From contig JAWLBL010000016.1 of NCBI GenBank assembly GCA_041687695.1, forward strand, positions 72,722 to 136,721: 64,000 bases of DNA. The letters run 5' to 3'. The DNA is from Myxococcota bacterium. GTDB lineage: Bacteria > Myxococcota_A > UBA9042 > PHBI01 > JAWLBL01. This document shows, piece after piece, positions 293-6,951 of the stretch. Below the pieces are notes generated by a model. It had not been told where the DNA came from. It saw only the letters and a list, made by a program, of their open reading frames with translations, and ran no database searches. The position numbers and the translations under genes are program-made. Every line of letters begins with the position of its first letter. The stretch's first letter is position 1.

Positions 293-1006
293 ATGAGCGC
301 CCTCGATCACGCGCTGTCCCGCCCGGTATCCGACGCGACCGTCAACGAGCGCCTCGCCTTCCTGCGCCGCGTCTACGGCTGGATGGCGGCGGGTCTGCTG
401 ACCACGGCCATCGGCGCGGCGATCTCCATCGAGTCGGGCCTGGCCTTCGCCTCGCTGCAGATGGGCTTCTTCGCCCACCTGCTCATCGTCCTCGCCTGGA
501 TGGGCGGCGCGAGCGTCGCCATGGGCCTGCGCCACCGCCCCGGCGTCAACGTCATCGCCTTCGCCGCCTACGCGCTCTTCACCGGCTTCGTCATCAGCGA
601 CGTCATCCTGGTCTCGATGCTGGTCGCCTCCAGCTCCGGCGCCTCCAGCCTGGTCTACGTGATGCAGGCCCTGGTGACGACGGTCGTGACCTTCACCGGC
701 CTCAGCGTCTACGCCATGACGACCAAGCGCGACTTCACCATGATCGGCGGCCTGCTCGTGGCCGGCGTGCTGGTGCTCGTCTGCGGCGGCATCGCCAACC
801 ACTTCATCGGCAGCAGCGGCTTCTCGCTCGTCCTGACCAGCCTGGGCGTGCTCGTCTTCTCGGCCTTCATCCTGTACGACACCCAGAAGATCGTCCGGAC
901 CTACCCGCTCGGCGAGCACGTCGCCGCGGCGATGGCGCTCTTCCTCAACTTCGTCCTGCTCTTCCTCTACCTGCTGCGCCTCATCCTGTCGCTCTCGCGC
1001 GACTGA
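293..1006 (+). CDS. Bax inhibitor-1/YccA family membrane protein
   Basis: GGAGG RBS before ATG 293; about 7 TM helices; motifs FLRRVYGWM, TTKRDFT, FILYDTQKI, AAMALFLNFVLLF. Confidence 0.9.
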   Translation: MSALDHALSRPVSDATVNERLAFLRRVYGWMAAGLLTTAIGAAISIESGLAFASLQMGFFAHLLIVLAWMGGASVAMGLRHRPGVNVIAFAAYALFTGFVISDVILVSMLVASSSGASSLVYVMQALVTTVVTFTGLSVYAMTTKRDFTMIGGLLVAGVLVLVCGGIANHFIGSSGFSLVLTSLGVLVFSAFILYDTQKIVRTYPLGEHVAAAMALFLNFVLLFLYLLRLILSLSRD

Positions 1007-2610
1007 AGGGTCGCCGCTGGCGCCGGCTCCTGCGGTGGCGCCGGCTCCTGCGGCGGCGCCGACAGCCACAGGCGCGCCTCGTCGAGCAGGCTGAAGGGCT
1101 GGCAGTACACGGGGTTGAGGGCGCAGCTCGCGACCCCGTGGGCGTCGTGCCGGACGAAGGGCATGTCCACGCGGGCGTGGGCGAAGGCGTCCATGATGAC
1201 GCCCTTGTCCGCGACCAGGTTGCTCGCGGCGAACAGCAGCCACAGCGCGACGTGAGCGGGGTTGAAGCGCGGCTGCAGCAGCCCGCGCGTCAGCCGGTCG
1301 AGCCCCGTACCCCAGCGGTCGAACTGGGGGCACAGGGCGTTGGCGATGGGGATGGGCGCGACCTTGGCCCAGAAGTCGGTCAGGCCCTGGGCCTCGAGGC
1401 CGAAGTCGAAGGCCAGCATGCCGAGGCCCACCGCGAGGCCGAACAGGACGCGGCCGGCGGCGGTGCGGGGCACGGTCGCCGGGTCGGTGATGAGCAGGAC
1501 CAGCACCAGCGTGACCGGCGCGTAGTGCGGGATGAAGGCCGGCAGATCGAAGCCCTGCGCGCCGTCGAGCACGAGGGCCGCCGAGAGCGTGGCCAGCACG
1601 ACCGGGACGCGCAGCTGCACGACGAGGCCGAGCAGGAGGATGAGCTCGGCCATGTTGGGGACGACGCCGAAGGCGTGGCTGTTGTCGCCCGTGCCCAGCT
1701 GCGGCAGGAAGGTGTTGACGACGCCCACGAGGGCCAGGCCGAAGGCCGACGGGTTGAAGATGTGCCGGCCGTCGCGGCGCAGGAAGGCCTTGGACAGCAG
1801 CGCCAGGGTGATGACGGCCAGGGACATGCCGACGCCGGCGAGCGAGAACTGGGCGAACAGGTTGGTGCTGAGGACGACCGGGAAGGGCGCGAAGCCGATG
1901 GCCCAGCGCTTGTGGACCGCGAAGCTCAGGACCATGTCCAGCACGATGGCGTAGGCCAGCTGCACCAGGATGGACAGGGCCTGGTCGGGCATGGCGGGCC
2001 AGTACAGGGCCCAGTAGGCGAAGATCGTGAGCTGGATGCCGGTGGGCAGGGCGTGGGTGAGCCGGAGCTGCAGGCTCATGGCGTGGCGGCGGCGGTAGAG
2101 CGCGACCGCGGCGAGCAGCGTCAGCAGGCCGGCGCCCGCGGCCCAGAACCATCGGTCACTCGCCGTCGGAGGAGGGGGCCGGTGGCCGACGACGATGTAG
2201 AAGTCGCCTTGGTCGTGGGCGGCGACGCTGTGGGCGGCGGCGTCGAGGACGCGCGCGGCCTCGGTGTCGGCGGCGCGGTGCACCGTGCGAGCGACGAAGT
2301 TGCGCGTGCGGACCTCGCCGGGCAGCCCGCTCTGGGCCGGGGCGAGCAGCAGGTACCCGACCGGCTGGCCCGACGGGGCCGCGAGCGTGTAGCGGACGGC
2401 CTGGGCCTCGATGGCGAGGCCGCTGAAGCGCAGGCCGCCGAGGGTCGGGGTCATCCAGCCGACCTCGGCGATGAGCTCGCGGGCGATGGCCTCGCGGCCC
2501 GGGGGGATGACCAGGCGTTGCGCGTGGGCGCTCGCCGCCATGGCGGCGTCGAGGGCCACGAGGGCCAGGGCGAGCAGACAGGCGGCGAGCGCGCGTCGGG
2601 CGGGGCTCAT
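967..2610 (-). CDS. RnfD/NqrB-like (UnbU-type) membrane protein with N-terminal exported domain, paralog 1
   Basis: ATG 2610 overlaps the upstream stop (ATGA); signal peptide ...ASAHA; motifs RHIFNPSAFGL and LLITDPATVP; multiple TM segments. Confidence 0.7.
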   Translation of the reverse strand: MSPARRALAACLLALALVALDAAMAASAHAQRLVIPPGREAIARELIAEVGWMTPTLGGLRFSGLAIEAQAVRYTLAAPSGQPVGYLLLAPAQSGLPGEVRTRNFVARTVHRAADTEAARVLDAAAHSVAAHDQGDFYIVVGHRPPPPTASDRWFWAAGAGLLTLLAAVALYRRRHAMSLQLRLTHALPTGIQLTIFAYWALYWPAMPDQALSILVQLAYAIVLDMVLSFAVHKRWAIGFAPFPVVLSTNLFAQFSLAGVGMSLAVITLALLSKAFLRRDGRHIFNPSAFGLALVGVVNTFLPQLGTGDNSHAFGVVPNMAELILLLGLVVQLRVPVVLATLSAALVLDGAQGFDLPAFIPHYAPVTLVLVLLITDPATVPRTAAGRVLFGLAVGLGMLAFDFGLEAQGLTDFWAKVAPIPIANALCPQFDRWGTGLDRLTRGLLQPRFNPAHVALWLLFAASNLVADKGVIMDAFAHARVDMPFVRHDAHGVASCALNPVYCQPFSLLDEARLWLSAPPQEPAPPQEPAPAATLQSRESDRMRRSR

Positions 2611-4202
2611 GGGGTGCCGGAGAGCCAGACGCGCGCCTCTTGCAGCAGGGTGAAGGGCTCGCAGTACAGCGGGTTGACGGCGCAGCTGGCGCGGCCGGCG
2701 GCGTCGAGCTGGACGAAGGGCATGGCCTCGCGCGCCTGCCAGAAGTGGTCGATGTAGTCGGCCTTGCCGTCGACGAGCAGGAACACGGCGAGGGCGACCC
2801 AGAGCGCGACGTGGACGCGGTTGAAGCGGGGTTGCAGCACGCCGAGCGTCACGCGGTCGAGGTGCTGGCCCAGGCGGTCGAACAGGGGGCTCAGGGCGTT
2901 GGCGACGGGGAGGATGGTGACCTTGGTCCAGAAGTCGGTCAGGTCGTGGACCTCGAACCAGAGGTCGAAGGCGGCCATCCCCAGGCCGACGAAGACGCCG
3001 AAGACGACGCGGCCCGGGTTGGTGCGGGGGAGGGTCGCCGGGTCGGTGATGAGCAGGACGAGGACCAGGGCGACCGGGGCGAAGATCGGCACGAAGGTGC
3101 GGACCTCGTAGTGCTCGAAGCCGACGAGGACCAGGGCGGCCGAGAGCGTGGCCAGCACGACCGGGACGCGCAGCTGCACGATGAGGCCGAGCAGGATGAT
3201 GAGCTCGGTCATGTTGGGGGTCGCGCCGAACTCGTGGCTGTAGTCGCCCGAGCCGAGGGCCGGGAAGAAGGTGTTGACCAGGCCGAACAGGGCGAGGCCG
3301 AAGGCGGAGGGGTTGAAGATGTGGCCGCCGCCCTTGCGGCGGAGCAGGGCCTTGCTGAGCAGGGCCAGGGTGATGATGACCAGGGAGAAGTGGACGCCGC
3401 CGAGCGAGAACTGGGCGAAGAGGTTGGTGCTGAGGACGACCGGGAAGGGGGCGAAGCCGATGGCCCAGCGCTTGTGGACGGCGAAGCTGAGGACCATGTC
3501 GAGGACGATGGCGTAGGCGAGCTGGACCAGGATGGACAGGGCCTGGTCGCCCATCGGGGGCCAGTAGAGGGACCAGTAGCCGAACAGGGTGAGCTGGATG
3601 CAGGCGGGCAGGGCGTGGGTGATGCGGACCTGCAGGTGCATCTGGTCGCGGCGGACGTACAGGGCGCGGGCGGCGGCAGCGGCGGCGAGGCAGGCGCCGA
3701 CGACCCAGAGCCACCAGGGGACCAGGGGCGGGCGGTCGGAGCCGGGGCGGAGCACGGCGCTGCCCAGGGCCACGTAGAAGCCGCCCTGGTCGCGGGCGAC
3801 GACGCTGGCGGCGGCGGCAGCGAGGGCGCGGTCGGCGTGGGGGTCGGCGGCGTCGCGGACGGTGCGGAGGACGAAGCTGGCGCTGGTGGGCTCGAAGGGG
3901 AGGGCGGTCGCGCGGGGGGCCAGGACCAGGGCGCCGACGGGGTGGCCGTCGGGGAGGCGGGCCAGGGTGTAGCGGACGGTGGTCTCGTCGAGGGCGATGC
4001 TGGTGAACTGGAGGCCGCCCTCGAGCGGGGTCATCCAGCCGACGTCGGCGATCAGGTCGCGGGCGACGCCCTCGCGGCCGGGGGGGATGACCTGGTCCTG
4101 GGCGCGAGCGACGGCGGGGGCGGCGAGGTCCGTGGCGAGCAGGGCCAGGGCCAGCAGCGCGACGAAGAGGGGGGAGCGGGGCCGGCGAGGGGCTGCAACC
4201 AT
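2607..4202 (-). CDS. RnfD/NqrB-like (UnbU-type) membrane protein with N-terminal exported domain, paralog 2
   Basis: Signal peptide ...AVARA; motifs HIFNPSAFGL and LLITDPATLP; long stretches identical to 967-2610. Confidence 0.7.
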   Translation of the reverse strand: MVAAPRRPRSPLFVALLALALLATDLAAPAVARAQDQVIPPGREGVARDLIADVGWMTPLEGGLQFTSIALDETTVRYTLARLPDGHPVGALVLAPRATALPFEPTSASFVLRTVRDAADPHADRALAAAAASVVARDQGGFYVALGSAVLRPGSDRPPLVPWWLWVVGACLAAAAAARALYVRRDQMHLQVRITHALPACIQLTLFGYWSLYWPPMGDQALSILVQLAYAIVLDMVLSFAVHKRWAIGFAPFPVVLSTNLFAQFSLGGVHFSLVIITLALLSKALLRRKGGGHIFNPSAFGLALFGLVNTFFPALGSGDYSHEFGATPNMTELIILLGLIVQLRVPVVLATLSAALVLVGFEHYEVRTFVPIFAPVALVLVLLITDPATLPRTNPGRVVFGVFVGLGMAAFDLWFEVHDLTDFWTKVTILPVANALSPLFDRLGQHLDRVTLGVLQPRFNRVHVALWVALAVFLLVDGKADYIDHFWQAREAMPFVQLDAAGRASCAVNPLYCEPFTLLQEARVWLSGTP

Positions 4203-4319
4203 GCGAACAGCATAGCGTTGGAGGGGGGAGGCTGTCACCGCGGGTTGCGGACGAGGGAGCCGGGCTCGTTGTCGAGGGGCGCGGACTTTGCGTATGCTGA
4301 CGTCGAGCAGGGGGGAGCG

Positions 4320-4631
4320 ATGGGCGAGCGCGGGCGACACGAGGACGAAGCGCGGGCCGTGCGGGCGGCGGCGCTGGAGGGTGAGGGTCACCTCGGGGCG
4401 GCGCAGCGGCAGGCGGCGGCGGCTGGCGAGGGGCTCGGCGGGGCCGCGGCGGTGTACGTGGACAAGATCCACCGTCACGCCCACCGGGTGACGGATGCGG
4501 ATGTGGCCGCGTTGAAGGGCGAGGGCTACACCGAGGACCAGATCTTCGAGCTGACCGTGGCGGCCGCGGTGGGGGCGGGGATGAGGCGGCTCGACGCCGG
4601 GCTGGCCGCGATCCGGGGAGGCAAGCGCTGA
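4320..4631 (+). CDS. Small CMD/AhpD-fold partner protein (no CxxC)
   Basis: C-terminal part of ORF 2640..4631; GGAG RBS before ATG 4320; VTDADVAALKGEGYTEDQIFELTVAAA is typical of the AhpD-like C-terminal half; TGATG overlap with the next gene. Confidence 0.75.
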   Translation: MGERGRHEDEARAVRAAALEGEGHLGAAQRQAAAAGEGLGGAAAVYVDKIHRHAHRVTDADVAALKGEGYTEDQIFELTVAAAVGAGMRRLDAGLAAIRGGKR

Positions 4632-5212
4632 TGCGACTGAGCGTGCTGGAGCGTGGGCACCGGCTGAAGGAGAAGCTCGTCCTGACGATGATCCGCGTCG
4701 TCTCGGGGGCGCCGCCGGTGGACGTGATCAAGGTGCTGATGTACCGGCCCGAGCGCTTCGGGCGGCCGTTTTCGGCCTGGATCCAGAGCTCGCTGCGCGG
4801 GCCGAGTGAATGGAGCGTCGGCGAGCGCGAGCTGTTCGCGGCGTTCGTGTCGCGGCTGAACGCGTGCCGGTTTTGAACGGCGGCGCACGGCGCGGTCGCG
4901 TCGTTGGAGCTGGGTGAGGACGTGACGAACGCGGTGCTGGACGACTGGCGGACCGCGCCGATCGACGAGCGGCTGCGGGCGACGCTGGGCTTTTTGGAGA
5001 AGCTGACGCTGGACCCCGACGGGCTGACGCCCGAGGACGCCGACGTGGCGCGGCGGGCCGGGGCGAGCGACGCGGCGCTCGAGGACGCGGTGCACGTCGC
5101 GGCGGCCTTCAACATAATCGACCGCGTCGCCGACGCGGTCGGCTTCGAGGTCGTCTCGCGCGAGCGGTTCTTCGCCGGCGCGCGGACGCTGCTGTCGCGG
5201 GGTTACCAATAG
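4631..5212 (+). CDS. AhpD/carboxymuconolactone decarboxylase-family peroxidase-like selenoprotein (CxxU, Sec82), 193 aa
   Basis: ORFs 4631..4876 and 4904..5212 share a frame. Reading through TGA 4874-4876 gives ERELFAAFVSRLNACRF-U-TAAHG, matching the AhpD E..S..N.CxxC...H motif. Confidence 0.85.
4877..4906 (+). promoter_or_regulatory. Putative bacterial SECIS element
   Basis: Stem ACGGCGC (4887-4893) / GCGTCGT (4898-4904), with one G-U pair and apical loop GGUC, 17 nt after the UGA. Confidence 0.7.
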
Positions 5213-5241
5213 GGGCGGCGCGCACCAGCGAGGCGTCGGGC

Positions 5242-6108
5242 GTGGCGCCCACGTCCACGCGGCGGGTGGTCGACCCGGCGGCGGCGGCGAAGGAGCGCTT
5301 CGACCGGCTGCACGGGGCGGAGCTGCTGGCGCAGGTGCCGACGTCGCCCGGGGTGTATCGCTGGTTGGCCGAGGACGGGTCGGTGCTGTACGTCGGCAAG
5401 GCCAAGAACCTGCGCCGGCGGCTGTCGCAGTATCGGGCGGCGCGGCGGACGAAGAAGGGCCGCAAGATGTGGCGCCTGGTGGGCCTCGCGGCGCGGGTCG
5501 AGTGGACGGCGCTGGGCAGCGAGCTGGAGGCGTGCCTCGAGGAGGTGCGACTCATCCAGGCGCTGCGGCCGCCGGAGAACGTCGCGTCGGCCTTCGAGTT
5601 CCTGTACCCGATGATCGGCGTGTCGCCGCGGGCGGCGCACGCGCGGCTGTGCCTGACGACGCTGCCCGACCGCTTCCCGGAGTACGCGATGCACGGCGCC
5701 TATCGGTCGCGCGAGACGACCGGGGCGGCCTTCTTCGCGCTGATGCGGCTGCTCGAGTTCGTGGCGCACACGCTGCCGCGGCGCGAGCTGGGCGAGGAGG
5801 CCGACGTCGAGCACTCGTACGTGTTCGGGTTCCGGCGGCTGGGCGCGGCCTGGGTCGCGCGGGTCGAGGCGTTCCTGCGGGGCGACGACCCGGGGCTGAT
5901 GGCCGAGCTGTCGCTGGCGCTCATCGAGCGGCCGAGCGCGCGCGCCCGCGCCGGCGACGTCCAGGCGGACCTGCGGCTGCTGCGTGACTTCTGGCGCGAC
6001 GAAGTGAGGCCCCTGCGCGAGGCCGTCACCACGGACGGCTTCGCCGTGTGGCCGGTGCCGCAGGCCGCGCGCGACCCGCTGTTCCTGAGGTTCCGGGCGA
6101 CCGGCTGA
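5242..6108 (+). CDS. GIY-YIG nuclease family protein (UvrC N-terminal/Cho-like)
   Basis: VPTSPGVYRW...VLYVGKAKNLRRRLSQY...SELEACLEEVRLI...PPEN. Confidence 0.85.
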   Translation: MAPTSTRRVVDPAAAAKERFDRLHGAELLAQVPTSPGVYRWLAEDGSVLYVGKAKNLRRRLSQYRAARRTKKGRKMWRLVGLAARVEWTALGSELEACLEEVRLIQALRPPENVASAFEFLYPMIGVSPRAAHARLCLTTLPDRFPEYAMHGAYRSRETTGAAFFALMRLLEFVAHTLPRRELGEEADVEHSYVFGFRRLGAAWVARVEAFLRGDDPGLMAELSLALIERPSARARAGDVQADLRLLRDFWRDEVRPLREAVTTDGFAVWPVPQAARDPLFLRFRATG

Positions 6109-6129: not shown

Positions 6130-6161
6130 TTGACCCTCACGCGACGTCAGGCCCTACCACT
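6130..6161 (+). promoter_or_regulatory. MerR/TipA-type promoter-operator
   Basis: -35 TTGACC, about 19-bp spacer overlapped by the dyad CCTCACG-CGA-CGTCAGG, then a weak -10 TACCAC(T); lies directly upstream of a TipA-like gene. Confidence 0.7.
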
Positions 6162-6180
6162 GCACCCAGGAGGTGAGGAG

Positions 6181-6951
6181 ATGGCGCTGACGGTCGGCCA
6201 GGTCGCGAAGCTCTCGGGGGTCAGCGTGCGCGCGCTGCATCACTACGAGGCCATCGGGCTGCTCGCGCCCTCGGCGCGCACCGTGGCGGGCTATCGGCTG
6301 TACGGAGACGCGGATCTGCAGCGCTTGCAGCAGATCCTGTTCTTCCGCGAGCTGGGGTTCTCGCTCGAGCAAATCGGCCGAACGCTGAGCGACCCGGGGT
6401 TCGACCTGCGGGCCGCCCTGACCCTGCAGCGTCAGCTCCTCGCCGAGAAGGAAGGACGCGTGCGAGCGCTGGTGGCCGCGGTGGACAAGGCGCTGGCGTC
6501 CCTCGACTCGGGAGTGACCATGAGCAAGGAAGAGATGTTCGAGGTGTTCGGGGACGTCGACCCGACCCAGCACGAGGACGAGGTGAAGGAGCGCTGGGGC
6601 GAGACCGACGCCTACCAGGAGTCGGCCCGGCGCACCAAGCAGTACCGCAAGGAGGACTGGCAGCGCATCAAGGCCGAGGGAGACGCCAACCTGCAGGCGT
6701 TCGCCGCGGCGCTCGACGCGGGCCGGGCGCCGGACCATCCGGCCGTGATGGCGCTGGCCGAGGAGGCCCGGCAGCACATCCACCGGTGGTTCTATCCGTG
6801 CTCGCCGGCGATGCATCGCGACCTGGCCGAGCTGTACGTCGCGGACCCGCGCTTCACGGCGACCTACGAGCAGGTGCGGCCGGGGCTGGCGCAGTTCGTG
6901 CGCGACGCCATCGTGGCCAACGCGGACCGGCAGGCCGGCCTCAAGGCCTGA
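6181..6951 (+). CDS. MerR family transcriptional regulator with TipAS antibiotic-recognition domain
   Basis: LTVGQVAKLSGVSVRALHHYEAIGLL HTH; EVKERWGETDAYQES and LYVADPRF TipAS motifs; internal Met (MSKEEMFEVF) as in TipAS. Confidence 0.92.
   Translation: MALTVGQVAKLSGVSVRALHHYEAIGLLAPSARTVAGYRLYGDADLQRLQQILFFRELGFSLEQIGRTLSDPGFDLRAALTLQRQLLAEKEGRVRALVAAVDKALASLDSGVTMSKEEMFEVFGDVDPTQHEDEVKERWGETDAYQESARRTKQYRKEDWQRIKAEGDANLQAFAAALDAGRAPDHPAVMALAEEARQHIHRWFYPCSPAMHRDLAELYVADPRFTATYEQVRPGLAQFVRDAIVANADRQAGLKA

Follow-up and report, generated by a model that had tools for sequence, protein, structure and literature searches.

A TGA-interrupted AhpD-like gene in a Myxococcota genome: a predicted CxxU selenoprotein with a conserved SECIS-type hairpin and an overlapping cysteine-free partner gene

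Does an in-frame TGA within an AhpD-like reading frame of a Myxococcota genome mark the end of a gene, or is it decoded as selenocysteine (Sec)? The question arises on the plus strand of the 64,000-nt stretch of DNA analysed here (the window), where two open reading frames, 4631..4876 (81 aa, starting with ATG) and 4904..5212 (102 aa, starting with TTG), lie in the same frame with exactly one stop between them, the TGA at 4874-4876. This arrangement had been pointed out in an earlier sequence-only reading of the DNA, and both the coordinates and the translation bear it out: Read through, the frame yields a product of 193 aa with the motif ...ERELFAAFVSRLNACRF-U-TAAHG..., that is, Cys79-x-x-Sec82. 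The frame and the motif positions of the 193-aa protein postulated in that reading are thereby confirmed, with Sec82 itself being a prediction. The gene and its key codons are as follows:

4631..5212, plus strand: predicted AhpD-like (TIGR01926) selenoprotein gene, 193 codons followed by the TAG stop at 5210-5212
4829..4831, plus strand: codon of Glu67, predicted proton-relay residue, 12 positions before Cys79, present in 120 of 120 database homologs
4865..4867, plus strand: codon of Cys79 (TGC), predicted resolving partner of Sec82
4874..4876, plus strand: in-frame TGA, predicted Sec82, second position of the CxxC-type redox motif
4886..4888, plus strand: codon of His86, predicted proton-relay residue, 4 positions after Sec82, present in 120 of 120 database homologs

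The ATG at 4631 shares one nucleotide with the TGA of the upstream gene, and the first two residues encoded from it, M1 and R2, are invariant among 30 orthologs. GC3 in the frame of the predicted selenoprotein amounts to 0.93-0.94, and the GC3 periodicity is unbroken from 4651 to 5100; because it continues across the TGA, both halves can be regarded as coding in one frame. A promoter and terminator scan of 4100-5400 returned neither on the plus strand.

The read-through protein belongs to the AhpD/CMD family, and the corresponding assignment made from the sequence alone holds up in each of the comparisons that we performed. The protein reaches 83.6 bits with the NCBIfam model TIGR01926 ('peroxidase-related enzyme'; cut-off 81.8, E 1.5e-23), which it exceeds by a small margin with residues 31-173 aligned to positions 31-174 of the 178-position profile, and 23.5 bits with Pfam CMD, where the margin over the cut-off of 23 is likewise small. 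The scores for the (seleno)protein models NF041238, TIGR04030, and NF053654 are far under their cut-offs, for which reason membership in NF041238 (AhpD_rel_CFYUT; 47.2 versus 175) or NF053654 (YciW-related; 15.8 versus 310) was rejected. A profile built from nine orthologs retrieves solved AhpD-like proteins, with 6k40 in first place (E 1.6e-39), followed by 3c1l, 2pfx, 2oyo, and 2prr (6.3e-33); the PDB matches extend over ~150 residues, and the Sec column is aligned with the second cysteine of the solved proteins (6k40, 3c1l, 2pfx). Mycobacterium tuberculosis AhpD is absent from the 14 PDB matches of this profile. All nine orthologs share R66, E67, A70, C79, U82, and H86, and E67 and H86 form a Glu/His pair at the spacing of the AhpD proton relay. 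Cys79 is moreover invariant in three ortholog alignments (A1, A2, A5) and a cysteine in 116 of 120 database homologs. No ahpC gene is present in the flanks examined around the selenoprotein gene.

We then turned from the protein to the RNA, where the following elements are located directly downstream of the TGA:

4887..4904, plus strand: SECIS-type hairpin, composed of the 5' arm ACGGCGC (4887-4893), the loop GGTC (GGUC in the RNA; 4894-4897), and the 3' arm GCGTCGT (4898-4904)
4888-4893 paired with 4898-4903, plus strand: conserved 6-bp core of the hairpin

The hairpin comprises seven pairs including one G-U, its stem begins 10 nt and its loop 17 nt after the TGA, and the stem length, loop sequence, and distances given for it in the sequence-only reading are all found in the DNA. 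The distance window of bacterial SECIS elements from the UGA is 16-37 nt. The stem-loop with a G in its loop that is expected of a SelB-dependent selenoprotein gene is present at 4887-4904, and a small apical loop with a G just 3' of the UGA has been described as the hallmark of the bacterial SECIS (PMC1088965). Energy alone cannot support the hairpin because the fold of the surrounding 71 nt (4865-4935) is indistinguishable from that of shuffled sequences (z = -0.08; 83 of 200 shuffles fold equally well), and the minimum-energy structure of this segment omits the hairpin and uses other pairs. An Rfam scan of 4700-5100 with E values up to 10 gave no SECIS family, only two irrelevant weak matches (E 5.5 and 7.8).

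The hairpin becomes significant only by comparison between genes, not on the single sequence. It occurs at the same place in nine loci, i.e., in the window's own and those of relatives, and its imprint on codon choice can be read from 86 Sec-form genes (loci L021-L026 and L033-L112, with the three distant loci L027-L029 left out):

Codon 87, Gly: GGC in 74 of 74 genes
Codon 88, Ala: GCG in 84 of 86 genes
Codon 89, Val: GTC in 84 of 86 genes
Codon 90, Ala: GCG in 86 of 86 genes

Elsewhere in these genes, at 20 conserved four-fold-degenerate columns, the commonest codon accounts for 41-72%. Codons 87-90 are therefore frozen at synonymous sites, which reflects selection acting on the RNA instead of the protein, and the frozen sites provide a very clean natural SECIS consensus, CGGCGC-GGUC-GCGUCG, that is common to several phyla. 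Covariation was assessed on a 57-column DNA alignment of the 86 sequences, in which the TGA occupies columns 7-9 and the core pairs columns 21-26 with columns 31-36. The six core pairs are standard in 84, 86, 85, 86, 86, and 86 of the 86 sequences. Pair 21-36 is C-G in 76 sequences, U-A in seven, U-G in one, and unpaired in two; in the U-A form, the third positions of a His codon (CAC to CAU) and of a Ser codon (UCG to UCA) have both changed synonymously. At pair 23-34, 73 sequences have G-U, 12 have C-G, and one is unpaired. Two pairs of the stem thus display compensatory double changes. When a weak 3-bp lower stem is included, 88.4% of the cells are paired, versus 25.5-58.8% with the 3' partners slid by 1-3 columns, and none of 500 shuffles reaches the observed covariation score, a control that ignores relatedness. 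Apart from L101 and L111, whose apical loop reads AGUU, all sequences (84 of 86) have GGUC there; the central G-U is therefore kept. Conservation of the hairpin, which had been named as a point to verify, is thus found, with covariation, among the 86 Sec-form genes. The distant orthologs L027 and L029, with HGEDLRE in place of HGAVAS, still fold a hairpin at this position, with 8 bp and a GGA loop; in the third distant ortholog, L028, the hairpin has 5 bp and GGUC. Cys-form DNA was available from two distant loci only (L030, L031), too small a sample for a control, and neither of them shows the GGUC hairpin.

Decoding of the TGA as Sec would imply that the Sec machinery is encoded elsewhere in the genome. 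This consequence had been drawn beforehand, and selA, selB, selD, and tRNA-Sec are indeed all present above their cut-offs in the genome to which the window belongs (7.97 Mb, 63 contigs, 99.3% complete): selA scores 486.4 bits (cut-off 267.9), selB 267.4 bits, or 292.6 bits with its neighbours in frame (cut-off 242.25), and selD, which contains an in-frame TGA of its own, 371.9 bits; the tRNA-Sec gene scores 78 bits (gathering score 47) and is called by ARAGORN as tRNA-SeC with the anticodon TCA. Within the set of 61 genomes searched, consisting of the window's own and 60 relatives, selA is over the cut-off in 50. Out of line with this picture, no selA match was obtained in two carriers of the TGA form, G005 and G012, which belong to one genus and are 93% and 90% complete, respectively. 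G005 has selB, selD, and tRNA-Sec; G012, an assembly of 1,150 contigs, has selB and selD and no tRNA-Sec over the gathering score. The missing selA may in both cases be due to assembly incompleteness.

What occupies the position of the TGA in other genomes? Matches to the selenoprotein were obtained in 10 of the 61 genomes, at nine places with an in-frame TGA and at three without. In all nine TGA-bearing loci (the own genome plus eight from relatives) the TGA is situated at the CxxU column, the motif varying between CRFU, CLFU, CDYU, CRYU, and CAFU at 23-55% alignment identity to the window protein. With the six closest orthologs as query, 507 relatives were retrieved from species-representative genomes, and in each of the best 80 that were kept the TGA is again at the CxxU column (80/80). 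By their labels, 48 of these best 80 are Gemmatimonadota, 12 Actinomycetota, six Myxococcota or 'Deltaproteobacteria', three Desulfobacterales-type, two Acidobacteriota, two Verrucomicrobiota, and seven others (Ktedonobacterales, Binatia, Sericytochromatia, Phycisphaerae, 'Proteobacteria', 'Enterobacteriaceae', and 'uncultured bacterium'); being kin, best-scoring, and in 48 cases Gemmatimonadota, these loci do not constitute independent samples. Split genes cannot be represented in the protein database, and among 120 homologs taken from it the Sec column contains Cys in 103 full-length proteins, Trp in 15, and Arg in two. The alignment to homologs that had been suggested as a check thus finds TGA (88 other loci) or Cys (103 of 120) at this column.

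The 15 Trp entries could speak for a reading of the UGA without selenium, by insertion of a near-cognate Trp or Cys or by some local recoding other than Sec. All 15, however, contain F-W-T-x-x-H-[GS]-A-V-A-S, the motif of the Sec forms, and on a phylogenetic tree they branch within the TGA forms; for these two reasons they are most simply explained as TGA codons that gene callers translated under another table; the true homologs have Cys. Moreover, the hairpin, the G in its loop, its spacing, and the full selABCD set fit Sec, and 243 nt before the Sec codon a TGA functions as a normal stop and terminates the partner gene described below, as it does in 77 of 84 loci. TGA is therefore not reassigned genome-wide, and we consider a selenium-free read-through very unlikely.

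A second alternative is that the locus is an ordinary Cys-type AhpD-like gene disabled by a nonsense mutation, which would account for a frame split by a single in-frame TGA and could draw on the ease with which Sec and Cys replace each other in this family. The latter is evident from the tree mentioned above, a FastTree phylogeny of the 120 database homologs and the 86 Sec genes (206 tips; Sec column masked, midpoint-rooted, loci L027-L029 not included), many of whose nodes are poorly supported: Sec and Cys forms occur intermingled, parsimony requires about 12 switches between them, and a single exclusive Sec clade was rejected on account of this intermingling. The pattern is in keeping with the frequent Sec/Cys exchange reported in the published account (PMC1794560). 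The window protein falls into a group of MAGs labelled Polyangia, Polyangiales, Myxococcaceae, and 'Deltaproteobacteria' (support 0.66). Against a pseudogene stand the retention of the TGA in 88 other genomes across several phyla, the part 3' of the TGA, which is open, keeps its GC3 periodicity, and encodes a conserved protein, and an RNA hairpin that is under selection; we regard inactivation as extremely improbable. That the locus consists of two separate small genes of 81 and 102 aa, as mechanical ORF calling lists them, or that the TGA is a sequencing or assembly error, can practically be dismissed: All 120 database homologs span the site and none ends or begins there, a pattern contrary to the homologs terminating at the TGA that had been named as counter-evidence in the sequence-only reading, an error cannot recur in 88 independent assemblies, and contigs from three other metagenome runs, weak evidence given that they are those of relatives, list no other letter at 4874-4876. 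Of the sequencing runs compared, none contains more than 12% of the sampled words, and no RNA run is among those with a match.

On these sequence comparisons it is very probable that the locus is one gene, in which the TGA at 4874-4876 is decoded as Sec to give a 193-residue TIGR01926 protein with the motif Cys79-x-x-Sec82. In the corresponding mechanism, SelB loaded with Sec-tRNA(Sec) would bind the hairpin 4887-4904 with its GGUC loop on the translating mRNA and would deliver Sec, with release factor 2 as its competitor for the UGA. In the protein, Sec82 would act as the attacking residue and would form a selenenylsulfide with Cys79, while Glu67 and His86 would constitute the proton relay; these chemical roles are assigned to the four residues by homology to AhpD only. 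The enzyme might then help to detoxify peroxides or disulfides, be it as a weak peroxidase in its own right or as a reductant of a peroxiredoxin-type partner.

Because the AhpD-like CxxU family is already established, the find is an ordinary one and amounts to an annotation fix: The gene genuinely belongs to a selenoprotein family that was described in 2005, without standing out in it, one predicted selenoenzyme takes the place of two 'hypothetical' fragments, and the organism gains a second selenoprotein beside selD. The fix matters beyond this genome, as the family is badly represented in protein databases, the best 80 of the 507 relatives all being TGA forms split by gene callers, and as public protein sets appear to hold mistranslated copies (TGA as Trp, 15 of 120 entries). 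The additions to what is known are modest and consist of the cross-phylum SECIS consensus, the mistranslated Trp copies, and a conserved Cys-free partner whose gene overlaps the selenoprotein start, with translational coupling being predicted.

The surroundings of the selenoprotein gene, from which this partner emerged, comprise the following features:

about 2551-4050 (by GC3), minus strand: gene of a membrane protein with a weak NQR2/RnfD/RnfE match
4320..4631, plus strand: partner ORF, 103 aa, no Cys, TGA stop at 4629-4631, inferred start at ATG 4320
about 5242-6108: GIY-YIG neighbour
about 6130-6951: MerR/TipAS neighbour

The partner ORF is the end of a longer open reading frame, 2640-4631 (663 aa), which we rejected as a single gene: It has no Pfam or NCBIfam match, GC3 assigns 2551-4050 to the minus strand, and a plus-strand gene is confined to its last ~103 codons. 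In 84 of the 88 other loci, a homolog of the partner immediately precedes the selenoprotein gene; the four loci without it are the three distant ones, L027-L029, and L090, where the contig begins inside the gene. In 52 loci the partner stop and the selenoprotein start have 1 nt in common, in 18 loci they have 4 nt in common. At E 1e-5, homologs of the GIY-YIG, the MerR/TipAS, and the membrane protein were each found in 0 of the 88 loci, and these neighbours were consequently rejected as parts of a unit with selenoprotein and partner.

In an hhalign comparison, residues 43-94 of the partner are aligned with residues 118-169 of the selenoprotein at a probability of 92.3% (E 5.6e-7), and judged by this alignment the partner is a remote paralog of the C-terminal helices of the selenoprotein. 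In addition, 24 of 30 partners match TIGR01926 weakly and far under the cut-off, and the partner profile matches 2oyo and 6k40 in their C-terminal parts (about 1e-5); designed repeat proteins that ranked above these two structures in the list were set aside as repeat artefacts. Among 8,000 database candidates scored, 923 relatives of the partner were obtained with E values up to 1e-5. They are ~100 aa long, no Pfam domain was found in them, and they go by the names 'hypothetical protein' or 'alkylhydroperoxidase family enzyme', in agreement with the ESM Atlas. A search for the partner in the three short Cys-form loci L030-L032 gave one match, which lies inside the AhpD-like gene itself, a sample too small for a conclusion on Cys forms in general. 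The Sargasso Sea, GOS, and 2026-review accounts of the AhpD-like family, in the portions accessible to us, make no mention of a partner ORF.

From the gene arrangement we predict that the partner is co-translated with the selenoprotein, of which it may be a structural subunit. More tentatively, and in our judgement less probably than not, the two could be an obligate pair, in which a translationally coupled Cys-free paralog and the selenoprotein would assemble into a heteromeric AhpD-like particle and which would have spread together with its near-invariant SECIS as one cassette through at least eight phyla. In any event, the Cys-free partner provides a concrete and testable hypothesis on how these uncharacterised enzymes are built.

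How does the locus compare with known systems? In the SECIS of Escherichia coli fdhF, the hairpin follows ~11 nt after the UGA and presents a GGUC apical loop, whose G and U contact SelB. The element described here shares this loop and lies one nucleotide nearer to the UGA, whereas it differs from the fdhF element in its stem sequence, in the lack of an evident bulged U, and in its short core of 6-7 bp with a weak lower stem. With the selenoprotein families NF041238 and NF053654 the protein has the CMD fold and the CxxU motif in common, yet it is a member of neither. In M. tuberculosis AhpD the attacking residue is Cys133. The all-helical CMD fold and the predicted thiol/selenol-disulfide chemistry are those of this enzyme, in which, unlike here, His132 stands in the place of Phe81 and Cys133 in the place of Sec82. 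According to the published description, the M. tuberculosis motif is Cys130-Ser-His-Cys133 with a relay of Glu118, His132, and His137, and the relay residues of PA0269 are spaced as Glu36/Cys48/Cys51/His55; the spacing E-x11-C-x2-C/U-x3-H is identical in both and in the window protein, and Phe81 takes the position of a His or Tyr in these two proteins (PMC3141380). The best solved relatives, Deinococcus radiodurans DR1765 (6K40), 3C1L, 2PFX, 2OYO, and 2PRR, are all Cys-Cys proteins, unlike the Sec form. To our knowledge, no partner subunit has been described for any of them. A DR1765 mutant was reported to be sensitive to H2O2 (PMC8945050).

The closest comparison is with the AhpD-like selenoproteins themselves, whose standing as a known class, asserted in the sequence-only reading, is upheld by the literature: The Sargasso Sea study of 2005 introduced the 'AhpD-like protein' (COG2128, CXXU, 27 sequences) as a new selenoprotein family (PMC1088965), 'AhpD-like 1' (COG2128, CxxU, 299 sequences) takes fourth place in the GOS table of 2008 (PMC2398784), and a table of a 2026 review contains the row 'AhpD-like protein, TIGR01926, CxxU' (PMC13188914). 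The same family serves as the browsing example of BSepDB (PMC13326102). As far as these sources describe it, the window protein agrees with the family in passing TIGR01926, in its CxxU motif with Sec in second place, in the small, G-containing apical loop of a SECIS-type hairpin, and in the widespread occurrence of Cys homologs. In contrast to the members described there, it belongs to a branch with an N-terminus of its own (MRL..RGHRL...) that is barely over the TIGR01926 cut-off, and it originates from a soil or sediment-type Myxococcota genome, not from marine plankton.

Several public protein homologs of the AhpD-like selenoprotein carry a standard amino acid at the column that corresponds to the predicted Sec82. 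Trp stands exactly at this column in P0004, P0006, P0012, P0013, P0016, P0035, P0036, P0054, P0061, P0069, P0089, P0104, P0107, P0111 and P0118, and Arg in P0002 and P0009. The entries of both types display the motif that surrounds the column in the Sec form (F-W-T-x-x-H-[GS]-A-V-A-S in the Trp entries) and are nested on the tree among homologs with an in-frame TGA. Judged by their protein sequences, the Trp entries probably represent TGA codons that were translated under another table, and the two Arg entries are probably CGA variants or errors. A taxonomic label also appears doubtful: The selenoprotein and partner sequences of locus L055, recorded as 'uncultured Enterobacteriaceae', are nearly identical to those of L054 from a Candidatus Binatia MAG, which suggests that the Enterobacteriaceae assignment stems from an error in binning or labelling.

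In and around the pair formed by the selenoprotein gene and the small Cys-free partner ORF directly upstream lie the following frames:

2607-4202 (approximate, start uncertain), minus strand: membrane protein that probably carries a signal peptide and weakly matches NQR2/RnfD/RnfE
967-5115, minus strand: long open frame of 1,382 aa, artefact of high G+C
2640-4631, plus strand: long open frame of 663 aa, artefact of high G+C
5242-6108, plus strand: GIY-YIG domain protein
6130-6951, plus strand: MerR/TipAS-type regulator

The membrane protein gene is divergent from the pair, and its NQR2/RnfD/RnfE match (E 3e-5) falls below the cut-off. GC3 periodicity rules out both long open frames as single genes. 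The GIY-YIG protein and the regulator lie just downstream of the selenoprotein gene, and neither shows conserved adjacency to it among 88 related loci.

The Sec machinery has apparent gaps in some relatives. No selA match was detected in G005 and G012, two genomes that hold TGA forms (L025 and L026), despite the presence of selB and selD; in G012, tRNA-Sec also scored below the gathering score. These missing matches may reflect incompleteness or a loss of the trait that left a stranded TGA gene. In the 88%-complete genome G016, the sole selA-like match (G016:C4:30584-31742) is weak (58 bits) and contains two in-frame TGA codons, and this stretch may be a decayed selA. In the genome to which the window belongs, selD lies outside the window (G000:C8:58895-59818) and is predicted to be itself a selenoprotein, since it carries a single in-frame TGA.
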